This document shows, in pieces, positions 6,186 through 58,958 of a DNA stretch of 64,000 bases. The notes under the pieces were generated by a model. The model searched no databases, was not told where the DNA came from, and saw only the letters and a list, made by a program, of their open reading frames with translations. This DNA is from an uncultured Candidatus Saccharibacteria bacterium (GTDB lineage: Bacteria > Patescibacteriota > Minisyncoccia > UBA6257 > 1-14-0-10-44-23): contig CAYMXN010000001.1 in NCBI GenBank assembly GCA_964394435.1, forward strand, positions 235,928 to 299,927, in the 5' to 3' direction. Numbering within the stretch: position 1 is the first letter of the stretch; each line of letters starts with the position of its first letter. The position numbers were made by a program, and so were the translations under genes.

Positions 6186-6593
6186 CTACGATTCGTCTGC
6201 GAGTTTGTTTACCGTAATCATTACCGTATCGGGAAGCCTAAATCCCCCAAGCAAAAACTGATACCCACCATCACTTATCGCGATACGCGTGACGCTTCCG
6301 AGTGAGATTTCTTTTGTTTGCGTGAAAGTCGATCCGCTCAAACGAAGATACGCGTTAACCTCTCCCGCCCAAATACACTGTACGTCTTTTGGACAGCGTG
6401 AGTCAGTTACCTGAATAAGCTCGATAGATAATCCATCTGGATACTGAACTGGTACGCCTTTCTCAATCTCAATTTTTGAACCATACTCAACCGTAGTTGG
6501 CTCTGGCAGCTTGTCTTTTTGAATACGAATCCAGGCGAATGCAGCGCCGGCAATTGCGAGAATAAGCAAGATGATTTCGATTTTTTTCTTCAT
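6186..6593 (-). CDS. membrane-anchored hypothetical protein
   Basis: Start moved to the internal ATG (MKKKIEIILLILAIAGAAF) to avoid overlap with the upstream gene. Single N-terminal TM helix. Confidence 0.45.
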   Translation of the reverse strand: MKKKIEIILLILAIAGAAFAWIRIQKDKLPEPTTVEYGSKIEIEKGVPVQYPDGLSIELIQVTDSRCPKDVQCIWAGEVNAYLRLSGSTFTQTKEISLGSVTRIAISDGGYQFLLGGFRLPDTVMITVNKLADES

Positions 6594-6672
6594 AGATAGC
6601 ATCAGTATATCATGCCGCTGATACTCAAAATAAAACCGCCCACATCGTTTCGACGTGGGCGGACTACGGGTA

Positions 6673-7515
6673 CTACTTTCGCCGCGGCGCAGGCAACTCC
6701 AACTCTCGTAGTGCTCGTTGCTGATATGCGACCGCTTCTGCGCGAAGCTGACCAGACGTAAGGCGAAATGGATGCCCAAAGAAGTAGCACAACGCAGACC
6801 TTAACCCGAAGCGCTTGATGACCGGGTATACGAGCCAGTGCCCACCGTTGTAGATGAGCGAGATGCGCATCGCCCTGTCGCTCCAACAACTCTCATCAAA
6901 CACTACTGGTATCAACCCGATGCTTGGCGAAACGTCTTCCGGGCCATCGCGTTCGACATACCGCGCGATACCTTCACAGAGCATATCGCTTGCTATCTCG
7001 TTTTGATGATCGCCCGATCCATAGCCAATACTCGGGAATGTGCCAAACCCCAGTCGGCGACTTAGTTGATCGGCAAGTGCGTGTGCGAGCTCGTGCGTAA
7101 TCGTATTACGAAGCTCGAGAGATAACTCTGGGTTGCTCTTATCTGGTTGATTTATGATGCAGTAGTCGAGCAAGCGACGATTTTCCCTGACGTGTTCGAA
7201 ATAGCCTGGGTTAAGCGTAAAGCCTTGCCGAGTTAGCTCATAGTGCGCGGCAAACGCAACCCCCTCAAGCGCTGGATGCGTTACGATCGGTATTTCAAAC
7301 TTAATCGTTGGCTTCCAGTGTTGATCAAACTCGATTCCGTACAGTTGCTCGATCGCCTGCATACGAGCCTCAAACGCCCGCTCAAATTGAGCGTACACAC
7401 TCAACTGTTCACCCGTCATTACTAATGATTGTGTCGCGCTCGCCCGAATTCTCTGACTACAACCCATTCCAAAGAACGCAAGGAGCGCCAATGAGACAAG
7501 CGTCTTTGATCGCAT
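6673..7515 (-). CDS. putative zinc metallopeptidase, lipoprotein-like (HEXXH)
   Basis: Signal peptide with a lipobox-like FFGMGC. HELAH motif within NTITHELAHALAD. Confidence 0.5.
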   Translation of the reverse strand: MRSKTLVSLALLAFFGMGCSQRIRASATQSLVMTGEQLSVYAQFERAFEARMQAIEQLYGIEFDQHWKPTIKFEIPIVTHPALEGVAFAAHYELTRQGFTLNPGYFEHVRENRRLLDYCIINQPDKSNPELSLELRNTITHELAHALADQLSRRLGFGTFPSIGYGSGDHQNEIASDMLCEGIARYVERDGPEDVSPSIGLIPVVFDESCWSDRAMRISLIYNGGHWLVYPVIKRFGLRSALCYFFGHPFRLTSGQLRAEAVAYQQRALRELELPAPRRK

Positions 7516-7605
7516 CGTACACCCCTTTTCTTAAGGACCTCAAGTATCGTATTCCTTCAACTTGTGCGTGTCAAAATGTCATATTTTATCACTATTTATG
7601 GGCTA

Positions 7606-7634
7606 TTGACATATATATGCTTATATGCTATAAT
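7606..7634 (+). promoter_or_regulatory. consensus sigma70 promoter TTGACA-N17-TATAAT with extended -10 (aTGcTATAAT)
   Basis: TTGACA at 7606-7611, 17-nt spacer, TATAAT at 7629-7634. About 110 nt upstream of the GC-rich ORF start. Confidence 0.6.
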
Positions 7635-7749: not shown

Positions 7750-8691
7750 ATGACCATGCACCACGTTCGCGCCACGATCTGCTTCGTGTCCCCCGACAAC
7801 CAGTGGGGGTTCGCGGAGGTCGTCGACTCGGAGACGGGCGACAAGAAGACGTGGATGTGCCACCGTCTCGGCCGTCGCGACGCGTTCGCGACGCAGCAGG
7901 GTACGATCACCTACTCCGACGCGAAGATCGCGTTCGGTCCCTTCCCGCAGCACGGCGACGTCGTCGTCGTGCTGGCGGAGAGGGCTCCCCAGGAGGGCAA
8001 GCAGTACCCCCAGGCCGTGTGGACCACGGCCGAGCAGTACGACCCCTTCATCGAGATCGCCGCGGGCAACCGCGCCGCCTTCGCCGAGTACGCTCGTGAG
8101 CAGGAGCGGCTCGCCGCCAAGCGGGCGGAGCTCGAGCAGAAGCTCGCCACCCGGCGGGTGGAGCTCGAGCCCCAGGTCGGGCCGCTGCAGAAGCGGTTCG
8201 CGATCCAGGACCTGTCCCCCATCTTCAACCCCCTGAAGATGACCCGGGTCGTCGTCAAGGAGCTCGGCCGCGAGCAGATGCTCGCGGAGACCGAGGACGG
8301 CGTCAAGGTCGTCCTGCCCCTGAACGTCCAGCACCTCGTGGTGATCAACCCGCGCGGCCCGTCGATCACGGCGGCGCCGGCGGCGACGCCCCGGATGCTG
8401 GCGATCGGCGAGGTCGCGTACGTGCGCAGCGCGTACGTGAGCATCCTCGAGGAGGACGAGGACCTCGTCCTCAAGATCCAGGCGAACGCCTGGATCAGCC
8501 AGCTCCAGGCGGAGCGGGTGGTGATGACGGGCCTCACGAAGGCCCAGAACACCCTCGCCATGAAGGCGGTGGAGGCCGCGGACACCGAGCGTCAGCGGCA
8601 GGAGGCGATCGCGCGGTCGCACATCAAGGGGCCGAAGCTGTCGCCCCCGCCCAAGGGCGGCATGGCGAAGGCGCTCGCTCGCGGGCGCTAG
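7750..8691 (+). CDS. GC-rich foreign-looking ORF, 313 aa; N-terminal OB-fold / cold-shock-like region then coiled-coil; function unknown
   Basis: Abrupt GC jump (to about 68% by eye) with strong GC3 codon bias. GAAAGAAAGG RBS. N-terminus (ICFVSPDNQWGFAEVVDSETGDKKTWMCH) resembles the cold-shock-domain core. Own terminator downstream. Confidence 0.6.
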   Translation: MTMHHVRATICFVSPDNQWGFAEVVDSETGDKKTWMCHRLGRRDAFATQQGTITYSDAKIAFGPFPQHGDVVVVLAERAPQEGKQYPQAVWTTAEQYDPFIEIAAGNRAAFAEYAREQERLAAKRAELEQKLATRRVELEPQVGPLQKRFAIQDLSPIFNPLKMTRVVVKELGREQMLAETEDGVKVVLPLNVQHLVVINPRGPSITAAPAATPRMLAIGEVAYVRSAYVSILEEDEDLVLKIQANAWISQLQAERVVMTGLTKAQNTLAMKAVEAADTERQRQEAIARSHIKGPKLSPPPKGGMAKALARGR

Positions 8692-8761: not shown

Positions 8762-9598
8762 TTTAAACGCGCTTACAAATTTAAGCGGGTCGATTGAGAT
8801 GCCGTTTACCTTCAGCGAAAGGTGTAAGTGTGGTCCGGAAGCGTACCCGGTTTGCCCAACCGTTCCGATGATAGTTCCTTTTTTTACTTTCTGTCCTGGT
8901 CTTACACTCATCGAGTTCAAATGAAGATAGAGCGTCGCAATACCCTGTCCGTGATCGACGATAACCGAGTTGCCGTAAATCGAATCGAGATACGCTTTTT
9001 GTACTACCCCGTCGTTGATGACCGCCACTGGCGTACCAACTTTAGCAGTAAAGTCTACTCCGTAGTGATGAGTTACTTCGGTGCCAGTTTTGCGCGTCTC
9101 GCCATATGTACTGCCAATATTACGATTATCGTAAAGCGGCAGACCAAACCCACTCGTAAAATATATTTCCGGTGTTTTAGTTTCGAGATCTTTATTAATC
9201 TGGGTATTTGAGGTAGCTAAACTTTGCGTAAGCTGTTTTGGCGTAAGATTAAGCTTTTCTGGCACGGGAAGATTAATAACCGTAAATACTCCCGGGCGAA
9301 CGGTAAGTGTTTTTTCATACGTTGTCTGGTCTTCAAACGTAATGACTAGTTTGTGTGCTCCAGCCTTGGTCGCAAACGCGATTGGCACGAGCGCCCGATA
9401 CCCTCCTTGATACGCGAAGAGCGGAACTTCTTGGGCGTCATACATCACTTTGACTGGCTTTACCTCATTACTTATTTTGATTACGACAGTCTCTCCTTGG
9501 CGCGGGGTAAGTGTAGAAAAATTTGGCGCCGTAGCGTAAGCGTTTATTGCTAGGGCGAGTGCACATATCGAAATTATAAACGGGGATAATCGTCTCAT
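8759..9598 (-). CDS. M23 family (LytM-like) peptidase, secreted
   Basis: Signal peptide. HHYGVDF and GPHLHLSL metal-binding motifs. Confidence 0.8.
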   Translation of the reverse strand: MRRLSPFIISICALALAINAYATAPNFSTLTPRQGETVVIKISNEVKPVKVMYDAQEVPLFAYQGGYRALVPIAFATKAGAHKLVITFEDQTTYEKTLTVRPGVFTVINLPVPEKLNLTPKQLTQSLATSNTQINKDLETKTPEIYFTSGFGLPLYDNRNIGSTYGETRKTGTEVTHHYGVDFTAKVGTPVAVINDGVVQKAYLDSIYGNSVIVDHGQGIATLYLHLNSMSVRPGQKVKKGTIIGTVGQTGYASGPHLHLSLKVNGISIDPLKFVSAFK

Positions 9599-9622
9599 AC
9601 GCGTTTAGTATATCACCAAATA

Positions 9623-9660
9623 AAACGCCCCCTGCCAATTCTGACTGGGGGCGTTTTATT
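9623..9660. terminator. hairpin terminator
   Basis: AAAACGCCCCC-loop-GGGGGCGTTTTATT. Confidence 0.7.
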
Positions 9661-9782
9661 ATTTATCGATTGTGAAGACGAACTTTTTTGCCCTGCCGCT
9701 TATTGTGCTTTCGGCGAGCTAATTTACGCTTTTTATTCATAGTAGAGCTAGTGTAGCGTATTTTACTTGAATACGCAACGAA

Positions 9783-10394
9783 TTATTTTGTCCCGCGGCG
9801 CAGAAACTCCTTAACTAACTTCGCTTTTTCCCGAGCGGGCAACAGATATTTTTTCATTCCATTTGCTTGGCGCTGACGGGTAATCTCGTATAGGAAAAGT
9901 GTTGCGGCTACAGAGAGATTAAAACTCTCAACCATACCGCGCATCGGGATATATACACACTCATCAGCGAGCTCCGCAGCTTCGACAGAAATTCCTCGAT
10001 GCTCGTTACCCAAAATAATAGCGAGCTTAGGGGCGGTAAATCGAACCTGCTCGATTGATTTACGTTTTTTCCCAGTCAGCGCAGTAGCGACGATGTGATA
10101 CTTCTGCTTACGCAGCTCTTTAATGCACGCTTTAGTCGAAGTGAATACCTTGAAGTCGAGCCATTTATTTGCGGAAGACGAGGTCGCCTTACCGACTCGC
10201 TTTGGGTTAAATGATGTGGCGTCGGACTGATTTTTTCCCGAAAAGATAAAGTATACGTTTTGAAATCCAAACGCGTCCGCGCTACGTAAACACGCCGCCG
10301 CGTTATGTGGATCGTGAATATCTTCAAGTACGAGTACGCCTTGCTGACGCTTACTCGCTACTTCGGTGAGTCGTTTTTTACGCTGAATAGTCAT
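9783..10394 (-). CDS. TrmH/SpoU-family RNA 2'-O-methyltransferase
   Basis: Start at the internal ATG (MTIQRKK). SPOUT fold motifs (ILGNEHRGIS, PMRGMVESFNLSVAATLFLYE). Confidence 0.8.
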   Translation of the reverse strand: MTIQRKKRLTEVASKRQQGVLVLEDIHDPHNAAACLRSADAFGFQNVYFIFSGKNQSDATSFNPKRVGKATSSSANKWLDFKVFTSTKACIKELRKQKYHIVATALTGKKRKSIEQVRFTAPKLAIILGNEHRGISVEAAELADECVYIPMRGMVESFNLSVAATLFLYEITRQRQANGMKKYLLPAREKAKLVKEFLRRGTK

Positions 10395-10421
10395 TGAGGT
10401 GATTGAAAACTGAACAATAGC

Positions 10422-10452
10422 GTCGGACAAACGCGCGAGGCGTTTGTCCGAC
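10422..10452. other. perfect 12-bp stem hairpin (GTCGGACAAACG-cgcgagg-CGTTTGTCCGAC) at the low-GC/high-GC boundary
   Basis: Seen in sequence. No U-tract. Lies between the small GC-rich ORF and the trmH start. Confidence 0.6.
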
Positions 10453-10459
10453 AAGGGAG

Positions 10460-10690
10460 CTAGGCGTCGAGGCTCTGCCGCGGAGTGCGCGGCGGCTGCT
10501 TGGACGGGCAAAACCCGTGGCACTCCTTGTCTTGGCGCGCGCCACAACACATCTTCTCGCCCTCGAGCGGGTCGATGGGGTACTGGGGTGATGAAGCCTG
10601 CGAACCCTCCACTGCGGGAACTTCAGGCAACAACCCCCTTGGACTAAGAACTGGATCCAGCTCGTCAACAAGCCTAAGCTCAATCGTCAT
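10460..10690 (-). CDS. small GC-rich ORF, 76 aa, Cys-containing (…CCGARQDKECHGFC…); function unknown
   Basis: GGGAGG RBS 5 nt upstream of the ATG (MTIELRLVDEL). About 65% GC in a 45% GC context. The longer 100-aa version would overlap the rsmE 3' end. Confidence 0.4.
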   Translation of the reverse strand: MTIELRLVDELDPVLSPRGLLPEVPAVEGSQASSPQYPIDPLEGEKMCCGARQDKECHGFCPSKQPPRTPRQSLDA

Positions 10691-10765
10691 TGCGACCTCC
10701 CTGATGTTTCGCGCGATGCGAAAACACCACCCTACTCTACCTAAGGGCTTTACAAAAGTCAAAGT

Positions 10766-11464
10766 TTAATGCGTAGCAAGGTAGGTGGCGATCATCGCCG
10801 CTGTTTCGGCGCGTAACGTAAGCTGACCGAGATTGACTGGCTGCAGCCCAGCTGTTTTTGCTTGTTCTATCTCTTCGGTCGAAAACCCTCCTTCGGGACC
10901 GATCCAGATACCAACTGTTTGAATCGGACCGGTAAATACCTTCTGGGCCGGCTCACCGGTGATATCGCAAATACACCCTCGGTCGAATGATTTCGCAAAA
11001 TGGAGTGAGTCAACAAACTGCTCCGGCTCTCTGACTTCCGGAATCTTCCCCCTACCCGACTGCTCCGCCGCTTCCTTAGCTATTTTTTGTAAACGGGCTA
11101 ACTTAATACCCAACTTAACTGTTCGCGCAGTAATAATCGGAATAATAGTCGACGCACCACACTCAACTGCTTTTTGAACCGCCAGTTCAACGTTTTCGTT
11201 TTTCAAAATTGCGAGGTATAGCGTTATCTGACTTGATGGCTCACTCGTATTGGCAGCGACCGACTCGATCTCAACCTCAATCTCGTTTTTGCTAATTTTT
11301 TTCAGTGCCGCTTCAGCCTCAAACCCGTCTTCATTTACTAATATAATCTTTTCACCGATAGCGATCTTGAGTACATTTTTAAGCTGATTGGCGAGCTCGG
11401 CATCAAGTACGCGCGCAAACCCGGCACGGAGTGGTATAGTCACAAAAAAGCGATGAAGTTTCAT
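10766..11464 (-). CDS. rsmE: 16S rRNA (uracil1498-N3)-methyltransferase RsmE
   Basis: 232 aa. MKLHRFFV N-terminus with a PUA-like domain, then a SPOUT domain. Confidence 0.75.
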   Translation of the reverse strand: MKLHRFFVTIPLRAGFARVLDAELANQLKNVLKIAIGEKIILVNEDGFEAEAALKKISKNEIEVEIESVAANTSEPSSQITLYLAILKNENVELAVQKAVECGASTIIPIITARTVKLGIKLARLQKIAKEAAEQSGRGKIPEVREPEQFVDSLHFAKSFDRGCICDITGEPAQKVFTGPIQTVGIWIGPEGGFSTEEIEQAKTAGLQPVNLGQLTLRAETAAMIATYLATH

Positions 11465-11537
11465 ATTGATAGATTATTGATATAACCATAACACCGCCCA
11501 GGCTCGTCGTGAAGACGTGCGCTGGGCGGCGAGAAAT

Positions 11538-12026
11538 CTAGCTTGCCAAACTCCAGTACCGCTCAAATGGTATCGGAGTGCCATCGTGACGAGAAAAAAT
11601 CGGAGATGATGATACCCGCAGGATGTCGTGGATGACCTTCATTGGCCAAGCGAGCAGTTCGGGCAGAAACGCGTCGCCAAGTCCATCGATGCTTCGGCCG
11701 TCCCAACCACCAGAGATGAGCGCCGACCGAATCACTCCAGAGAAATCAGTGAACTCATCTGGACGCCAGAGTATCTCTGGTCGGAGCTTGGCAACATTAA
11801 GCGTTGCGAAACCCGGAGCGTTTTCGACGAAACGGAATCCCGCCCGAATAAACGCATCTCGCTGCACTCCTTCGTCGGGCTCGATCATAATCGCACCATA
11901 AGAGTCGGTTTGATCCAGATGAACATTGAACCAAATCCACAGGTCAACGACTCGAGACCCCAAGCCACTCAATCGGTCGAGACACTTCGCGTGAATGTCA
12001 TTAAACACGAAGACACCCTTAATCAT
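11538..12026 (-). CDS. hypothetical protein (about 162 aa), moderately GC-elevated
   Basis: Start set at MIKGVFVF, which has an AAGGAGG RBS 6 nt upstream. No confident domain. Confidence 0.45.
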   Translation of the reverse strand: MIKGVFVFNDIHAKCLDRLSGLGSRVVDLWIWFNVHLDQTDSYGAIMIEPDEGVQRDAFIRAGFRFVENAPGFATLNVAKLRPEILWRPDEFTDFSGVIRSALISGGWDGRSIDGLGDAFLPELLAWPMKVIHDILRVSSSPIFSRHDGTPIPFERYWSLAS

Positions 12027-16996: not shown

Positions 16997-17084
16997 GGAG
17001 GTGTCGCATAGTGGTCTAGTGCGCAGTCCTGGAAAGACTGTGTACCGCAAGGTACCGGAAGTTCGAATCTTCCCACCTCCGCCA
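16997..17084 (+). tRNA. tRNA-Ser (anticodon GGA), CCA encoded
   Basis: GGAGGTG acceptor stem, anticodon loop CTGGAAA, long variable arm, T-arm GGAAGTTCGAATCTTCC, 3' CACCTCC-G-CCA. Confidence 0.8.
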
Positions 17085-17127: not shown

Positions 17128-17172
17128 GACTAACAAAACCCCGCACGTATGACGCGTCATACGTGCGGGGTT
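17128..17172. terminator. bidirectional terminator (CCGCACGTATGACGCGTCATACGTGCGG with flanking A/T runs)
   Basis: Perfect palindrome with GGTTTTGC downstream on plus and AAAA upstream. Confidence 0.7.
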
Positions 17173-17216
17173 TTGCTTACTACTTCTGGAAGAGTGATTA
17201 AAAAATTCGAAAGTTG

Positions 17217-43440: not shown

Positions 43441-43570
43441 ATCGCCTATTTTAGACGAAGTGTCAAAAGGTGTCAAAAAGGTTCATGGGGATAATCGGTA
43501 ATAAAAAGAGCGGACGATGTATCTCTACATTGTCCGCTCATCGCCCGCCTGTTGGCGGACGGGTGCGAAA

Positions 43571-44263
43571 CTAGTGACCGAAGCGGTAACCGTAACCCTG
43601 TGCACGCGCCCGATGGGCCGCCAACATCACCTCTACAAACGTGTGGCTCATGTCGTACGACCACTCTCCCTCGATCGGGAGCGTATCGAGAGAGTACCAC
43701 TCGAGGCCACTCGCCTCGGCCTGGTTGTCTCCGCTCTTCACCCCGAACACGACCTGCTGGTCGTGCGTACCCGCGTACGTCACGATGTGGGTCGAGGCGT
43801 AGCTGTGCTTGCCCGGGTCGTGGGAGAATCCGTTGCGATTACGACCGTCCATCTGAGGCGCGTACTGGCGCATACAGACCGGATGGGCCCAACCGAGCGG
43901 CAGCTCGACGTCGATGCCGAGATCGCTCTTGTAGTGGAACTTCAAGGCGTCCTCGATGGACTGGTAAAGTCCGACCACGCCGCCGACGATGGCGAGCTTG
44001 CCAGGAAAGCGCCCCGTCCGACGACGGATGACACCGCCGAGCAACTGACCCGTCTTCGGGTCCTGCTTGACGATGACGCCGTCGACACAGGGCACGGCAC
44101 CGAGCTTCGTACGCAAGGGCCAGACCGCTCCCGAGACCCGCCCGTCCGGCTGGACGAGCTGATCGAGATCCGAACGCTGGGCGAGGATCTCGGCGAGTTG
44201 CCGAGTGCTGTAGCCCACCAGCCGATCCGCAAGGTCGGCAGTCGAATCAGTCCTTTCGGACAT
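43571..44263 (-). CDS. GC-rich foreign-looking ORF, 231 aa; Nudix-fold-like with degenerate Nudix box
   Basis: GC jump with GC3 bias. GGAGGT RBS. Region VIVKQDPKTGQLLGGVIRRRTGRFPGKLAIVGGVVGLYQSIEDALKFHYKSDLGI follows Nudix fold topology but lacks the REx2EE catalytic residues. C-terminal LEWYSLDTLP…YDMSHTFVEVML resembles the Nudix C-terminal helix. Confidence 0.5.
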   Translation of the reverse strand: MSERTDSTADLADRLVGYSTRQLAEILAQRSDLDQLVQPDGRVSGAVWPLRTKLGAVPCVDGVIVKQDPKTGQLLGGVIRRRTGRFPGKLAIVGGVVGLYQSIEDALKFHYKSDLGIDVELPLGWAHPVCMRQYAPQMDGRNRNGFSHDPGKHSYASTHIVTYAGTHDQQVVFGVKSGDNQAEASGLEWYSLDTLPIEGEWSYDMSHTFVEVMLAAHRARAQGYGYRFGH

Positions 44264-44314
44264 CGGAAACCTCCGGGAAATACCCTCCGCAACCGATTGT
44301 TGTGGATTAGATAT

Positions 44315-44343
44315 GTTATAGCATAAAATATGCCCAAAGTCAA
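44315..44343 (-). promoter_or_regulatory. sigma70 promoter TTGACT-N17-TGcTATAAC on the minus strand driving the GC-rich ORF
   Basis: -35 at 44338-44343 and -10 at 44315-44320, read as the reverse complement. Confidence 0.55.
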
Positions 44344-44396
44344 TCACCTGCTGTTGCGCCCACAAATCAAAAGCCCGCCAGCTGGCGGACTTTTGA

Positions 44397-46631
44397 TTAC
44401 TTCGTGCTTACTCCCAAGGCTTCAAAGACTGGCATAAATTGAGCGGCGTTCGGATTGCCTAGGAAGAAGTCTGGGACGTGAGCTAAGAACTGCCGTAGGT
44501 ATGTAGCTGCTTCAGCATTTTGGCCAGTAAAAGCCAGTACGACACCGAGCTTGAGCTCGGACTCGTAATCAGCTTCGTTGTACTTGAGTGCGAGACGATA
44601 TAACCTCGCCGCTTCTTCATAATTCTCTGCGTCACCATAATACCCGGCAACAATACGAGCCTCTGGTGCAGTGTTTGGGTTGCGCCCCCTGCTCTTTGCT
44701 AGTTCGATCTCTTCAAATCCTTTTTTCTGATCGCCAACTTCAAATGAAAGCAACCCATAGAAAAAGTGCGGGTCAGCAGCTACCGGATCAAGGTCGATAG
44801 CGTTTTGCATTTCTTTGAGCGCCGCTTTTTTATCTCCCTGGAGCAAGCGAAGCTTTGAGAGCATATAATACGTCTGCTGACGATTGGATGAGATACTTAT
44901 CGCCTTACGAATATTTTCCTCGATCAACTTGAAATACTTTTTATCGAGGTTTTGAAAAATCATTCCGGCATCGGCGCGTACAATGTACAGATAGTAGTTA
45001 TTCGGATCAGCCTGGATAGCCTTATCAAACTGCGCGAGTGCGTAGTCAACAACTGCTATCGTATTTGAAATTTCCTGCTGCTGCACCATCTGCGACAACG
45101 CACTTACCATGCTCTGACTGATCTCGTGCTGATATGGCTCGTTGAGTGCGATTCCTTTTTTATACGACTCGATCGCCTTATCTGGCATTCGATTTACGAA
45201 ATAGTTCAGCCCCCAGAACTGGAGGTGGTTTGCATATACAATTCTACTATTCACTACTACTCCGATGAGCAACCCGGCAACCACTACGCCTACTACGCAG
45301 CCGCCAAAGACCTTCTTTGTTGTAGTAAACGAACCTACCTCGCTGGTTGCACGATGCCGATCTGGAACATACTGGTCGACAAGCGCAATAAACACAATGA
45401 GCATCAAGTACGAGCCAAACGCATCAAAGACGAAAAAGTTTTGAGCGAGATAAGCGACTAGGGCGCCGAGTGCGAATGGGCGGAGCTCCAGAGGCGCGAA
45501 GCGAATAATCGTTCGGATAAGCAAGCCAATAAGTAGTACGTAGGCGAGAAAACCGACTACGCCACTTGTCGCTAAAATCTCAAGATATACGTTGTGCGGC
45601 TTATCCCAGTACGTTTCAGCAAAGCCAGTACGAAGCAAAACTGGGTTATAACGCTGATCAAATGGGTATTTAAAGTTTTCCCAACCATATCCCAGTAGTG
45701 GCTTTGTTTTAATAATATCGATTGCGGTTTTCCAGGCGATTAAACGGTTACCGACGGTCGCATCAAAACTTGAGATTTGAGCTAAGCGATTGAGCCCTGG
45801 GACCTTTTGCCATACAGCTGCGCTGCGGGTAGCAAAAAATACTCCACCAAAAATTATCATCGCGACAATACCGAGTAGCGGGATGTTTTTTACTATTGAT
45901 GTGCGCACTGTAAATGGCTTGAGCTTACGAAGAGCAACATACCCAAGCGTACTCATTGCGCCCAATGTCAAACCAACCAAAGCACCACGCGTCTGTCCGA
46001 GTAAGATAACAACGGCTAGGGTTGCGATGCCAAACCATAGCCAAACTCTTACCCCTTTTCGCTGGGTCGTACGAGCAAGCCAAGCTCCAATAAACATATT
46101 AAACATAAGATATGGAGCTAAAAATGCTGGGTTGCCCATAAAACTACCTGGGCGTTGAGCATCACTCCCCTCAAACACCGTTGGTGCGATTTTTTGGATG
46201 ATCGCAAAAAAGCCAACGATAAAGGCTAAGCCAAATAGATAGCTCATAAATGAGCGCCAGTTAATACGGCGACGCATCGCGACTAATACCAAGAAGTATG
46301 CGTAAAAGTGTAGGAGTGAGAAAATACCAATCGCGCGCTCTTGAATTGACCAAAAACTTCGATGCAAATTAACTCCCGTCAAACTAGCGAGCGCGAGCAT
46401 CCCCAAAAATAAACCTAGGGCGAGTACTAACTTACTTGCCCGAGGACGGTACTCTTTGCGAAATACTGCGAGCCCAATCCAAGCAGCTACTGTTAGCTCA
46501 ACTAAAATATGAAAGCCAAATACCTTTAAGGTTACGAGTGGATAAATGAGGTTATTAATATAGAGCAAAATGGCGAGCGGGCAGATATACAATCCCCAGC
46601 GCACGATTTTCGATAATACGTCTGTGTTCAT
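44397..46631 (-). CDS. O-antigen ligase-like (Wzy_C) membrane protein with C-terminal TPR repeats
   Basis: 744 aa. About 12 TM helices in the N-terminal half. The C-terminal half has repeated TPR-like helices (…YYMLSKLRLLQGDKKAALKEMQNAIDLDP…). Confidence 0.7.
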   Translation of the reverse strand: MNTDVLSKIVRWGLYICPLAILLYINNLIYPLVTLKVFGFHILVELTVAAWIGLAVFRKEYRPRASKLVLALGLFLGMLALASLTGVNLHRSFWSIQERAIGIFSLLHFYAYFLVLVAMRRRINWRSFMSYLFGLAFIVGFFAIIQKIAPTVFEGSDAQRPGSFMGNPAFLAPYLMFNMFIGAWLARTTQRKGVRVWLWFGIATLAVVILLGQTRGALVGLTLGAMSTLGYVALRKLKPFTVRTSIVKNIPLLGIVAMIIFGGVFFATRSAAVWQKVPGLNRLAQISSFDATVGNRLIAWKTAIDIIKTKPLLGYGWENFKYPFDQRYNPVLLRTGFAETYWDKPHNVYLEILATSGVVGFLAYVLLIGLLIRTIIRFAPLELRPFALGALVAYLAQNFFVFDAFGSYLMLIVFIALVDQYVPDRHRATSEVGSFTTTKKVFGGCVVGVVVAGLLIGVVVNSRIVYANHLQFWGLNYFVNRMPDKAIESYKKGIALNEPYQHEISQSMVSALSQMVQQQEISNTIAVVDYALAQFDKAIQADPNNYYLYIVRADAGMIFQNLDKKYFKLIEENIRKAISISSNRQQTYYMLSKLRLLQGDKKAALKEMQNAIDLDPVAADPHFFYGLLSFEVGDQKKGFEEIELAKSRGRNPNTAPEARIVAGYYGDAENYEEAARLYRLALKYNEADYESELKLGVVLAFTGQNAEAATYLRQFLAHVPDFFLGNPNAAQFMPVFEALGVSTK

Positions 46632-54574: not shown

Positions 54575-55804
54575 TTAGTACCCTTCGAGCATCGTCGACT
54601 TAAGGTGACCACGGATACGGAGCAAGGCTTTCGCCTCGATCTGACGAATACGCTCACGCGTAACACCAAACTCCTTACCTACCTCTTCAAGGGTGTGTGT
54701 AACTCCATCCTCCAACCCAAAACGCATCTGTAAAATCTTTTGCTCGCGCGGCGTTAAATCAATCAAAATTTCACGAATTTTTTCACGCAAGAGCGCCTGG
54801 CTGGCAACTTGAGCCGGCGTCAAACTCTTATCATCTTTAATAAACTCGGAAAGCGTCGAGTCATCGTCTGAATCACCAACTGGCGACTCGAGGCTGACCA
54901 CGTCCTGACTAATTTTCTGGATGTAGTGAATCTTATCGATTGGCATATCCATCTCACCGGCGATCTCTTCAACGAGTGGGTCGCGGCCAAGCTCTTGAGT
55001 TAATCGGCGCTTAACCTGCGTGTATTTACTGATTGTTTCCACCATGTGTACTGGAATACGAATCGTACGGCTCTGGTCGGCCAGTGCGCGGGTAATAGCC
55101 TGACGAATCCACCAGGTGGCGTAGGTTGAGAACTTAAAACCACGGCGATAATCAAACTTATCAACAGCGCGCGAGAGACCCATATTACCCTCCTGAATCA
55201 AGTCGAGAATCGAGAGGTTGGAGCTGCGGTTTACGTAGCGCTTAGCGATAGAAACGACTAAACGCAAGTTGGCGCTAATAAACTTTTGACGAGCAACTTC
55301 GTCGCCCTTTTCGATACGCTTAGCGAGCTCTTTCTCTTCAAATGACTTTAAAAGCGACGCCTTACCAATTTCTTTGAGATACATCTGTACCGAGTCCGGG
55401 AGGTTGTCCTCGTAATTAATCTCGGTAGCACGCTGGAGCTCTTTCTCGGTAATCTCCTCTTTGTCGCGCGGAACATCAATTAACTGACTCGTTTCAATAA
55501 CTTTAATACTCGACTCGTCGAGCTTGCGATAGATTTCGTCTAAAAAGGTCACATCTTCCTCAATGCGCGGGAAGTAGTGAAGCACCTCGGTATCAGTAAC
55601 ATAACCACGGTCCTTGCCGCGATCGATAAGATCGCCTAACTGTTGGAGGTTAATTTCTTCTCGCTTTTTAGCTTTTGCAGTCTTAGCTGATGCCGCCTTA
55701 CGGGCACTCTTTTTCAGAACAGTCTTTTTCGGCTTGGCGGACTTAGAACGTTTTGCAGCTTGAGCAGATTTTGCTTTTACCGCTTTCTTTTTTGGCATAG
55801 TCAA
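54575..55804 (-). CDS. rpoD: RNA polymerase sigma factor RpoD
   Basis: Lys/Ala-rich N-terminus. Regions 2-4 present ([10 protein letters not shown]…, [33 protein letters not shown]). Confidence 0.9.
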
Positions 55805-56142: not shown

Positions 56143-56976
56143 CTACGAGGCGAGACCCTTCTTCACCGCGGCGAGGACCACCTCGCCGTCGATTCCGCTG
56201 GCACCCCAGTAGGCGGGCTGTCCCGCCTTGCCGAGGCCTGCGCCACCCGACCAGCCACCCAAGTGCTCCTTCAAGCTGGCACAGAGCGCGCCGTCCCCGT
56301 AGAAGTTCACCTCCCCGTCCTTCGAGAGGATGAGGAGCTGGTCGACGGCCCCGTAGAGGCGGTCAGCGACCGCTGAGGTCTTCGAGTGGTCCATGCGGAC
56401 CACCGTCAGACGTCCGTCCACCTCCTTCGCGCCGATGGCGCGGAGGGCCTCTGTCTCGTGCGCGGGGGTCACCCCCTGCGCCGCACGGTCTAGCGCACGA
56501 ATGCGCTCGACCTCGGCGTCAGATGCCCCGAGCGCCCGCATCGCAGGGACGTACCCCGCGTCGTTGGCACCTACGAGCTCGATCCAGCGACGAGTCTGCT
56601 CGCTGGTCGGCATCTTAATCAGTGCCAAAACCTGCTGCACCGCCGGGGGACGGTGCGACTGGTCGCCGTGATGGTCGACGACCACCACCTCAGTCTGCTC
56701 CGGCCACTCCTTGGTCGGCGAGCACTCGACGAAGATGACGCATTCGATGCCGGCACACCGCGTCGACTTACGGTTGTGCTGCCAGAAGTCTGGTCCGGTC
56801 TGGACCAGGATCTCCTCGACCGTGAGGCCAAGGTCGCCTGCGGCGGCGTAGACATGCGACCCCCAGCCCTTGTTGGGCTGGACCCACTTCTCACCCGCGA
56901 GGGTGAGGAGAGAGCGAACGACCTCCATTTCGAGGTCGTTCCCGCCGAGTACGAACAAACGGTTGGCCTTACCCAT
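56143..56976 (-). CDS. GC-rich foreign-looking ORF, 277 aa; DHH-like phosphoesterase?
   Basis: GC jump with GC3 bias. Start at MGKANRLFVLGG with GGAG RBS. VVVDHHGD (DHH motif III-like) and LGGNDLEMEVVRSLL (motif I-like, substituted). C-terminal Gly-rich GGWSGGAGLGKAG where DHHA1 has GGGH. Weak assignment. Confidence 0.45.
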   Translation of the reverse strand: MGKANRLFVLGGNDLEMEVVRSLLTLAGEKWVQPNKGWGSHVYAAAGDLGLTVEEILVQTGPDFWQHNRKSTRCAGIECVIFVECSPTKEWPEQTEVVVVDHHGDQSHRPPAVQQVLALIKMPTSEQTRRWIELVGANDAGYVPAMRALGASDAEVERIRALDRAAQGVTPAHETEALRAIGAKEVDGRLTVVRMDHSKTSAVADRLYGAVDQLLILSKDGEVNFYGDGALCASLKEHLGGWSGGAGLGKAGQPAYWGASGIDGEVVLAAVKKGLAS

Positions 56977-57174
56977 CGAAATCTCCAGTTGGTCCGGAAG
57001 GACCGTGAATCCACTTCGGGCGTTTCCGCTCAGGTAGGACGACACCTCTGGATAAGCACTTTATTTTACAACCCGGCTTGGAAGGTTGTCCGCTCTGCGA
57101 GCAGCGTTTTAGGCGCAAATACGCTCAAAACACTGCTCACGAACGGTCTATTTCAATGAACGACTTAGATATTT

Positions 57175-57224: not shown

Positions 57225-58958
57225 CTACCCCTTTCTGCTCAATTGTTGATACTCCTGGATGAGTTTTTCGAGCAGTTGATGGTCCCCGGCACGTTCGGCG
57301 GCAGCCATCTGCCCCTGAATCTCCTGACGCCTCTGTTTTGCCCCCTCCTGGCGTAGTCCACGTACAATATCTTCAAACTCCTTCTTTACCTTTTTCGGGT
57401 CGTCGCTTACCACCAAACTCGCGTGCATCTGAAGCAGGCCAACTCGCGCGGCATCTTCTTGCGATAACTGCGCAACCTGCCCACCCTCGATATATGCATA
57501 TATCGCCTGATAGGTTTCCGGAATATACTCTCGCACTCCCTTTGATTCGATTAGTAATCCGGCTGTGTCATTTAAGAGCATCTCTAACAAACGCTCGACG
57601 AGAATGTCTTTACGCGTTGTTGGCTCGGGAATATCTACGTTGCCGTTTACCTCTTTAGGCGCACTACTACCTGCGAGATCGAGCTTGATCTGACTCATTT
57701 CAGCTATCAACGTCTGCTCGGCGATGCCGCTCATACGAGCAAGCTGGTGGAGCCAGTGGTTTTGTTCTACTGGACTACTCACCTGCTTAATTTTGCCAAG
57801 CGCCTGTCGTACCGCTTTTTTCTTACTTGCTATGTCAGTCGCCCGACCGATGCCGTAGAAGTTGAAGTAATACTCCATTGCGGGCACCGATCTTTCAATT
57901 AACTCTTTCATATGCCCCGGTCGAGACTTAGCGATATCGGCCGGATCTTTAAGATTCGGGTCGTCAAAGATAACTACTTTGACATTAAAGTCATTGGCTT
58001 GCGCCAGGTCGATTGTACGCTCGGCTGCCGCCTTGCCCGCGTTGTCGTTATCAAAAGAGAGCACGAGATTCTCCGCAAACCGGCGAATGGTCTTAAGGTG
58101 GTCGGCGGTAAGCGCGGTGCCGGAGGTGGCGACGAGATTTTTCACGCCATCCTGATAGGTGGCGATAAAATCCATCTGCCCCTCAACTAATACCGCGGTG
58201 TTGGCGTCGCGAATGTCATTTTTTGTTTTCCAAAAGCCAAATAGGAGGCGCGACTTGTTAAAAATAGGCGTTTCTGGACTGTTTACGTACTTTCCGATAT
58301 CCGCGCTCTCGTTGCCCGGCATAACACGCCCCGTAAAACCGATCACTTTCCCGAAGTGATTGTGGAGCGGAAACATAATTCGGTTGCGGAACCGGTCCAT
58401 ATACATTCCCCGCTCGGTTTTAAAGATTAACCCAGCTCGCTCAATATCGGCGGTCGCGTACCCGAGTTTTGTTACGTGGCGAAGTAGCGCGTCCATACCT
58501 GGACCCGCCATACCAATCTCAAACTCTTCAATCGTCTTCTCGGTTAGGCCGCGGCCGGTGAGATACGCTTTTGCTGGACGCCCCATATCCTCGGCGAGCG
58601 TCTGCTTGTAAAAATCTTTTGCGATTCGATTGAGCTCGTACAAGACGTCATACTTTTTCTGATCTTGGTTACCGTGCGTCTTAAGCTCAACCCCTGCTTT
58701 GTCAGCTAAAATTTTGAGTGCGTCTAAAAACTCGATGTTTTCATAACGCATCGTAAATCCGATTACATCTCCCCCGAGCCCACACCCAAAGCAGTGCCAG
58801 ATGCCACGGTCGGGCGAGACCATGAATGATGGGGATTTCTCTTTGTGAAATGGGCAAATTCCCTTCAGGTTTTTCCCTGCTGGTGCGAGCGCGACATACT
58901 GCTTAATAAATTCAGCGATGTCGATTTTTTCTTTGATGAGATCGGTGGTTTCGGCCAT
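57225..58958 (-). CDS. dnaG: DNA primase DnaG
   Basis: Zinc finger CPFHKEKSPSFMVSPDRGIWHCFGCGLGGD. TOPRIM region (EGQMD…). Confidence 0.9.
   Translation of the reverse strand: MAETTDLIKEKIDIAEFIKQYVALAPAGKNLKGICPFHKEKSPSFMVSPDRGIWHCFGCGLGGDVIGFTMRYENIEFLDALKILADKAGVELKTHGNQDQKKYDVLYELNRIAKDFYKQTLAEDMGRPAKAYLTGRGLTEKTIEEFEIGMAGPGMDALLRHVTKLGYATADIERAGLIFKTERGMYMDRFRNRIMFPLHNHFGKVIGFTGRVMPGNESADIGKYVNSPETPIFNKSRLLFGFWKTKNDIRDANTAVLVEGQMDFIATYQDGVKNLVATSGTALTADHLKTIRRFAENLVLSFDNDNAGKAAAERTIDLAQANDFNVKVVIFDDPNLKDPADIAKSRPGHMKELIERSVPAMEYYFNFYGIGRATDIASKKKAVRQALGKIKQVSSPVEQNHWLHQLARMSGIAEQTLIAEMSQIKLDLAGSSAPKEVNGNVDIPEPTTRKDILVERLLEMLLNDTAGLLIESKGVREYIPETYQAIYAYIEGGQVAQLSQEDAARVGLLQMHASLVVSDDPKKVKKEFEDIVRGLRQEGAKQRRQEIQGQMAAAERAGDHQLLEKLIQEYQQLSRKG

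Follow-up and report, generated by a model that had tools for sequence, protein, structure and literature searches.

A predicted small cysteine-rich protein gene inserted between rsmE and trmH in a narrow clade of Candidatus Saccharibacteria

We analysed a 64-kb stretch of the genome of an uncultured Candidatus Saccharibacteria bacterium (contig CAYMXN010000001.1), hereafter called the window, in which a short GC-rich island (island B) separates two RNA methyltransferase genes, rsmE upstream and trmH downstream. All coordinates are positions in the window, and the elements of island B lie on the minus strand unless stated otherwise (Table 1). The original prediction, made from the letters of the window, had placed here an open reading frame (ORF) of 76 codons opened by GGGAGG-N5-ATG, and this ORF is present at 10460-10690 (minus strand) with exactly the translation that had been quoted. 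A perfect 12-bp hairpin that had been described at 10422-10452 was read directly in the sequence. The naming of the flanking genes as trmH and rsmE methyltransferase genes also agreed with the Pfam and NCBIfam results: the upstream product scored 159 bits against the TIGR00046 model of RsmE (cut-off 41) in addition to matching two Pfam families, and the downstream product passed the Pfam model of the SpoU/TrmH type, with TrmH as its best NCBIfam match, below the cut-off of that model. The proposed GC content of about 65% over about 320 bp held in kind but was slightly high in degree, as the GC content is 62.1% over the 280 nt from 10421 to 10700, 68% in the conserved core and in the 3' third of the ORF, and 57% over 10395-10765. 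The corresponding values are 46.7% for trmH, 47.6% for rsmE, and 48% for the window.

The distribution of the island suggests how it arose. The closest species-level relative is an uncultured Candidatus Saccharibacteria metagenome-assembled genome whose RsmE is 91% identical, and the TrmH homologues fell into two groups, a tight clade of at least 89% identity and, after a gap, sequences from 63% downwards. The island was present in all clade members with at least 89% TrmH identity whose region was recovered. Because rsmE and trmH are adjacent without the island in three independent relatives of about 60% TrmH identity (gaps of 3, 32, and 84 nt), island B is a clade-specific insertion that split an ancestral rsmE-trmH pair. 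We compared five distinct versions, found via cluster members: those of the window, L006, L086 (identical to L095), L091, and L093. Between the window and L006, the synonymous sites of rsmE and trmH are saturated, with a proportion of synonymous differences (pS) of 0.68-0.73 and a proportion of nonsynonymous differences (pN) of about 0.055; therefore, whatever still aligns outside codon positions 1 and 2 is under selection. In addition, three independent short-read Logan contigs carrying rsmE (L002, L003, and L005) end inside island B, at window positions 10613, 10555, and 10513, probably because coverage falls where the sequence is GC-rich or because strains differ in the hypervariable half of the ORF.

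In four of the five versions, the ORF is open from a conserved ATG to a conserved TAG, over 76, 78, 64, and 63 codons. Its N-terminal variable segment measures 117, 114, 123, 81, and 78 nt in the five versions, every length being a multiple of 3. This half cannot be aligned between relatives; it differs completely even in L006 and L091, despite a trmH identity of 92%, which implies replacement of the segment rather than point mutation. In the conserved core (37 codons), variable columns are distributed as 12, 7, and 20 over the first, second, and third codon positions (p = 0.04, 5 sequences), and the GC content at the first codon position (GC1) exceeds that at the second (GC2) in all five versions of the ORF. 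Of the six frames, the sense frame has the lowest pooled pN/pS in the core, at 0.26; the antisense frame with which it has its wobble positions in common comes next at 0.33, and the remaining four frames gave values of 1.0-2.4 (maximum 2.35). The core pS of approximately 0.43 is below that of the flanking genes because a third-position GC content (GC3) of 0.81-0.92 leaves few synonymous states. We also considered an ORF on the opposite strand (10485-10769, plus strand), in which the wobble positions shared with the sense frame mimic conservation and GC1 lies below GC2. This frame was rejected, as no open stretch of at least 45 codons is left in L095, L091, or L093.

From frame preservation and purifying selection in this particular frame, the latter modestly supported by 5 sequences and 37 codons, we consider it likely that the small ORF is coding; its translation and the ends of its transcript are predicted. 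The view that it is a real peptide gene has gained ground, given that the Shine-Dalgarno (SD) sequence, the ATG, the stop codon, and the frame are conserved in five diverged relatives and that pN/pS is lowest in this frame. Loss of the frame among relatives had been named beforehand as an observation that would speak against the gene, and the frame was found to be conserved across them.

The conserved part of the product comprises the C-terminal 37 residues, which follow the pattern D[PS]LE[GR]EK[MA]CCGARQ[DE]xEC[HY]xFCPSxxPxRxxxQxL[DN]A*. Four cysteines are among the 23 invariant alignment columns of this module, and their spacing is CC-x7-C-x3-C. These four invariant cysteines make a small metal-binding protein the most plausible reading at the level of the product.

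The signals in front of the ORF are conserved together with it. The putative promoter begins 5 nt past the rsmE stop codon and is the single sigma-70-like match in the 2.1 kb of 9600-11700. Its -35 box is invariant in the five relatives, its -10 box reads TAGAGT, TAAGAT, or TAGGCT, and the spacing is 17-18 nt. In L091, an extra AT-rich insert of about 110 nt (L091 2065-2180) lies between the rsmE stop codon and this promoter. The predicted 5' stem-loop, which terminates immediately upstream of the ribosome-binding site, has 96.7% of its cells paired in the 5 sequences and three pairs altered on both sides, a level of compensatory change reached by 4 of 500 shuffles. The GGAGG core is invariant in the 5 relatives, with a spacer of 5-8 nt to the ATG. 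In L006 the start reads ATGATG, and the spacer of 5 nt is counted to the second ATG; in L093 GGGAGG is changed to AGGAGG, which leaves the SD sequence perfect. Because they are conserved while the flanking synonymous sites are saturated, the promoter, GGAGG, ATG, TAG, and both stem-loops appear to be under selection.

Downstream of the ORF, the hairpin consists of the arms GTCGGACAAACG (10422-10433) and CGTTTGTCCGAC (10441-10452), perfect over 12 bp with a 7-nt loop between them, and it grows to 13 pairs by one more C-G pair inside the loop, leaving a loop of 5 nt. Its predicted free energy is -23.7 kcal/mol in the window and ranges from -23.7 to -27.6 kcal/mol across the five versions; by a rough estimate, about 0.04 perfect 12-bp short-loop hairpins would be expected by chance in 64 kb. 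The stem is 100% paired in the 5 sequences, and two of its pairs have compensatory changes. It starts 7 nt past the stop codon in the window and 4-5 nt past it in the relatives, and the spacer from the hairpin to the trmH ATG measures 27, 12, 45, 12, and 59 nt in the five versions (12 nt in both L006 and L091), with A-T-T alone conserved. The tail contains 4-6 U in its first 8-12 nt, and the U run does not adjoin the stem. A lax consensus terminator scan passed the hairpin solely through this weakly T-rich tail, unlike the canonical terminators of this genome, which have short GC stems between A and T tracts (for example, at approximately 9622-9657, where a terminator with a U-tract follows trmH). 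The absence of a U-tract had already been pointed out in the original prediction and stands with the proviso that the tail is weakly U-rich; what the comparison added is the conservation of the stem with compensatory pairs. We take the hairpin to be a selected structure. Because its stem is longer than the genome's terminators and no U run is adjacent to it, a role as a leaky terminator or 3' stabiliser seems more likely than that of an efficient stop. No further copy of the hairpin arm was found as a repeated element in the window, and a pattern search for the hairpin DNA in metagenomes gave no match. We also considered a repeated or mobile element, or a repeat of the diversity-generating retroelement (DGR) type, and rejected it, as neither the island nor the hairpin arm has a repeat in the window.

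The arrangement bears on how trmH is expressed. A promoter scan of 9600-11700 found no promoter-like site between the hairpin and the trmH ATG, and trmH lacks an SD sequence in every relative examined. A leaderless promoter of its own was rejected for trmH, as no TANNNT box lies at the usual 8-nt distance in any relative. Since trmH has neither a promoter nor an SD sequence of its own, its transcription most probably comes through the insert, from the island promoter and/or from rsmE, across the hairpin. Co-transcription of trmH through the insert, as had been suggested, is therefore supported, the sole sigma-70-like site in 9600-11700 lying upstream of the small ORF. The use of an SD sequence sets the small ORF apart in this genome, as 49 of the 54 long ORFs of the window have none. 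Many ORFs of the window begin 8 nt past an extended -10 box, TGnTAnACT (for example, the minus-strand starts at 9598, 12527, 17804, 20683, and 46631), and this arrangement is the signature of leaderless mRNAs. The few ORFs of the window led by GGAGG are GC-richer orphans, namely the small peptide, 11538-12026, and 43571-44263. The rpoD product encoded in the window is a full RpoD. A literature search turned up nothing specific on SD usage or leaderless usage in Saccharibacteria.

Table 1. Positions of island B elements and flanking genes in the window
Feature	Position	Strand	Remarks
rsmE (16S rRNA U1498 methyltransferase family), upstream flank	10766..11464	-	ends TAA; Pfam PF04452 + PF20260
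Sigma-70-like promoter (predicted)	10734..10762	-	TTGACT (10762-10757), 17 nt, TAGAGT (10739-10734)
5' stem-loop of predicted transcript	10707..10723, extensible to 10704-10728	-	6 conserved pairs
Shine-Dalgarno sequence GGGAGG	10696..10701	-	5 nt before ATG
Small ORF, codons 1-39, hypervariable N-terminal half	10574..10690	-	unalignable between relatives
Small ORF, codons 40-76 + TAG, conserved C-terminal module	10460..10573	-	23 invariant columns
3' stem-loop, 13 G-C/A-U pairs, 5-nt loop	10421..10453	-	100% paired in 5 sequences
Variable spacer, hairpin to trmH ATG	10395..10420	-	weakly U-rich; without SD sequence or -10 box
trmH-like SpoU 2'-O-methyltransferase gene, downstream flank, probable co-transcript	9783..10394	-	Pfam PF00588

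Taken as a whole, these features lead us to favour, by a modest degree of confidence, the reading that island B is a compact, self-contained orphan gene for a small protein with a cysteine tail, inserted in the rsmE-trmH pair and carrying a promoter that probably also serves trmH. Every step of the mechanism below is deduced from sequence. The comparison shows the insertion, the conserved signals, the kept frame, purifying selection in that frame, and covariation in the hairpin; the start and end of the transcript, its translation, metal binding, and the read-through into trmH are inferred. The transcript would begin at the conserved sigma-70-type promoter directly past the rsmE stop codon, and its 5' end would fold into a small protective stem-loop. 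The strong GGAGG site, exceptional in a largely SD-less and partly leaderless genome, would then drive the synthesis of a protein of 63-78 residues, whose N-terminal half may be an unconstrained, probably disordered spacer that is rapidly replaced. The part under selection would be the C-terminal 37-residue module with its four invariant cysteines in the CC-x7-C-x3-C arrangement, and in a protein that has no signal peptide and stays in the cytoplasm, this module would most likely be a small knuckle that binds metal (Zn, Fe, or Cu) or is redox-active. The unit would be closed by the very stable hairpin, which lies 4-7 nt past the stop codon and would act as a 3' stabiliser or leaky terminator, a role suggested by its lack of a proper U-tract, and read-through from the island promoter and from rsmE would supply trmH. 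The product is a candidate for a new family of small, cysteine-rich proteins that occurs in a single narrow clade of Saccharibacteria.

Several observations weigh against this reading. In L006, an in-frame TAG at codon 14 is directly followed by ATG (TAGATG; L006 3763-3807), which could represent incipient decay or a stop followed by a restart. The codon-position bias of the core is modestly significant (p = 0.04, 5 sequences). Gene callers omit the ORF on complete contigs, and in L091 the gene caller annotated instead a 61-residue ORF antisense to the peptide. The histidine adjoining the third cysteine is a tyrosine in L093, so that neither a classic Cys3His nor a Cys4 site is established, and a single-sequence AlphaFold2 model gave one short helix at low confidence, with a mean pLDDT of 62. 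Eleven of the 13 hairpin pairs never vary, which could also mean that the hairpin is a sequence-specific site for protein or in the DNA. The searches for homologues point in the same direction. A word-indexed search of 5.8 billion clusters returned only the peptide itself, for the ORF as well as for the 5-sequence profile; an exhaustive phmmer search of 1.84 billion representatives returned the peptide itself and a low-complexity repeat artefact (P0122). There was no meaningful match to the peptide in a profile search of the PDB, no significant match in a tblastn search against phages and plasmids, and no match in peptide-pattern scans of JGI metagenomes and viral contigs. With no homologue found, nothing independent backs a folded domain. 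The same searches answer the earlier concern that the peptide might be a fragment of a larger known protein, as it matches none in them.

Other explanations have to be weighed against the small-protein gene. One is that trmH is under the control of the ORF, which would encode a leader or ribosome-arrest peptide acting in cis; a ribosome paused or arrested at the TAG, or just before it, would then cover the 5' arm of the hairpin, so that read-through would be allowed or the trmH start opened. Such a device would explain why a short ORF with a strong SD sequence stands just upstream of a gene without an SD sequence and promoter of its own, why conservation falls on a final stretch of about 37 residues, which would roughly span the exit tunnel, while the N-terminus varies with its frame kept, and why the hairpin stays at a geometrically compatible 4-7 nt from the stop codon. 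However, the unit was inserted, promoter included, into a previously tight operon, which is more typical of a stand-alone gene; RNAalifold shows no covarying alternative (anti-terminator) pairing, the poor U-tract of the tail makes termination by the hairpin doubtful, and the distance from the hairpin to the trmH ATG ranges over 12-59 nt. To our knowledge, moreover, four invariant cysteines are not seen in arrest peptides. We consider this explanation unlikely, and quite improbable the more specific proposal that a thiol-reactive ligand, a metal, or the redox state causes the four-cysteine tail to stall the ribosome near the stop codon, melting the hairpin and gating TrmH expression. If stalling did occur, the island would be a regulatory cassette that entered the operon as a mobile unit, and might belong to a broader class of GC-rich, SD-led orphan cassettes with high GC3 within conserved pairs (rsmE-trmH and dnaG-rpoD). 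If the island were a non-coding structured RNA, whether a cis-regulatory 5' leader of trmH or a small RNA of about 320 nt from the promoter to the hairpin, the ORF would be an incidental consequence of the many frames that GC-rich DNA leaves open. Several frames are indeed open in this GC-rich island, which lies in a lower-GC genome and has a promoter at one end and a strong hairpin at its 3' end; the stem-loops at both ends covary, the whole region folds better than shuffled controls (z = -2.9), and third positions vary less than in the flanking genes. The last point is accounted for by a GC3 of 0.8-0.9, however, and the substitutions are biased to codon position 3, with pN/pS lowest in the SD-led frame. 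The indels of the variable half are all multiples of 3, and the G-to-A change of L093 preserves a perfect SD sequence. As for structure in the conserved core, RNAalifold gave GC-rich pairings without convincing covariation, and a structured RNA there was rejected: the consensus fold has one pair with a double change, itself broken in one of three sequences, and several other broken pairs. At the gathering threshold, Rfam detected three tRNAs only in the whole window, and a permissive scan of 10300-10850 (E-values up to 10) gave only chance-level snoRNA and lncRNA matches (E of at least 2.2). A non-coding RNA is on these grounds an unlikely alternative.

The island might also be functionless GC-rich DNA that arrived by horizontal transfer and is now decaying; an example would be the 3' end of a phage gene or of a gene of an actinobacterial host, with the terminator still attached. 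Its GC content, its use of an SD sequence, and its hairpin without a U-tract are all foreign to this genome, further GC-rich orphan islands lie nearby, and L006 carries the in-frame stop. We regard this origin as very unlikely, since no donor or parent protein was found in 5.8 billion clusters, 1.84 billion representatives, phages, plasmids, viral contigs, or metagenomes, and since unselected DNA would, with neutral sites saturated, no longer align or stay GC-rich, whereas the core, the signals, and the hairpins are conserved. Finally, the original prediction had likened the peptide to a leader-plus-core precursor, which would make it a ribosomally synthesised and post-translationally modified peptide (RiPP) with an N-terminal leader and a cysteine-rich core modified by enzymes encoded elsewhere. 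The small size of the ORF, the acidic, Pro-rich N-terminus, and the C-terminal cysteine cluster fit this idea, but the presumed leader is hypervariable and interrupted in L006, and it is the presumed core that is conserved. No radical-SAM, YcaO, Lan-type, MNIO, or peptidase-transporter protein was found among the 63 predicted proteins scanned in the 64-kb window, and the immediate neighbours encode RsmE, SpoU/TrmH, an M23 peptidase, and orphans, with no maturase adjoining. In addition, searches of Pfam (E-values up to 0.1), NCBIfam, and PHROGs gave no match for the peptide and no precursor family. The precursor idea is not supported by these comparisons, and we hold it to be extremely improbable.

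Island B is accompanied by other GC-rich orphans in the window. A GC3 of 0.8-0.97 is kept in island B and in the neighbouring orphan islands despite saturated neutral divergence. Island A (7750-8691, plus strand; L006 orthologue at 6332-7606, minus strand) encodes a 313-residue orphan with a GC3 of 0.97 and no Pfam, PHROGs, or NCBIfam match. It shows 41% amino-acid identity to its L006 orthologue, compared with 82-91% for the neighbouring genes, with nearly equal pN (0.38) and pS (0.33), and its GC3 stays at 0.84-0.97 despite the saturated neutral sites of its neighbours, which marks a fast-evolving gene. Island D (56143-57045, minus strand) is an orphan ORF of 65% GC with a GC3 of 0.83 and no family match; located between dnaG (57225-58958) and rpoD (54575-55804), it is, like island B, a GC-rich insert in a classically conserved pair. 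Island C (43517-44365), an orphan region of 60-64% GC that is open on both strands, lies inside a polysaccharide/O-antigen gene cluster; its minus-strand ORF (43571-44263) is led by GGAGG, and a palindromic bidirectional terminator lies at 44365-44398. Directly upstream of rsmE, 11538-12026 (minus strand) encodes a 162-residue orphan with a perfect AAGGAGGT ribosome-binding site and no family match, which is conserved in L006 and L091 and called as a gene in both. Just downstream of the tRNA-Ser gene (16997-17084), a perfect palindrome with 23-nt overlapping arms (17134-17175) has A and T runs on its flanks and probably serves as a bidirectional terminator.

The annotation of genomes from uncultured, host-dependent bacteria systematically overlooks small proteins, and in the present case the ORF was skipped or an ORF was called on the wrong strand. 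In island B, an orphan microprotein with a defined cysteine motif has comparatively good support, and its gene lies between two RNA-modification genes in an epibiotic Saccharibacteria lineage. A product that binds a metal or acts as a partner of the methyltransferases encoded next to it would bring a lineage-specific factor into the tRNA/rRNA modification of a minimal genome, and a leader peptide would amount to a new regulatory device. The pattern to which it points is one of GC-rich, fast-evolving, SD-led orphan genes kept in an SD-poor genome of about 48% GC. The finding is a modest one at present: a candidate small-protein family in a single narrow clade.

Compared with known systems, the island peptide resembles RiPP precursors such as SCIFF/ranthipeptides and lanthipeptides in its size and in the cysteine cluster near its C-terminus, but its neighbourhood has no maturase, its 'leader' is not conserved, and it has no family match. 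With the arrest peptides TnaC, SpeFL, SecM, and MifM it shares a strongly initiated short ORF upstream of a gene without signals of its own, conservation limited to a C-terminal stretch of tunnel length, and an RNA element directly past the stop codon. It is not homologous to them, however; its 63-78 codons make it longer than TnaC or SpeFL, it has four invariant cysteines, and it came as an insertion with its own promoter, with no alternative RNA structure found. Hairpin-only ('I-shaped') intrinsic terminators and 3' stabiliser stem-loops have been described in high-GC Actinobacteria, and the island hairpin is like them in its long, perfect, GC-rich stem, which stands just past the stop codon of an SD-led GC-rich gene and has no U-tract. 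Unlike them, it occurs in a window of 48% GC whose own terminators are short with A/T tracts, and no actinobacterial donor was found. Among the small cysteine-rich metal-binding proteins of bacteria, Trm112/YcaR-type zinc-knuckle proteins (PF03966) are partners of RNA methyltransferases. The island protein differs from them in showing no sequence similarity (for PF03966, with its two CxxC-type knuckles, there was no Pfam match at E-values up to 0.1 and no PDB match of substance), in having CC-x7-C-x3-C instead of paired CxxC motifs, in its hypervariable N-terminal half, and in having no predicted fold. It is nevertheless comparable to them in its length of about 60-80 residues, its four conserved cysteines, and its lack of a signal peptide, and, by analogy, in that its gene adjoins RNA methyltransferase genes with which it is probably co-transcribed.

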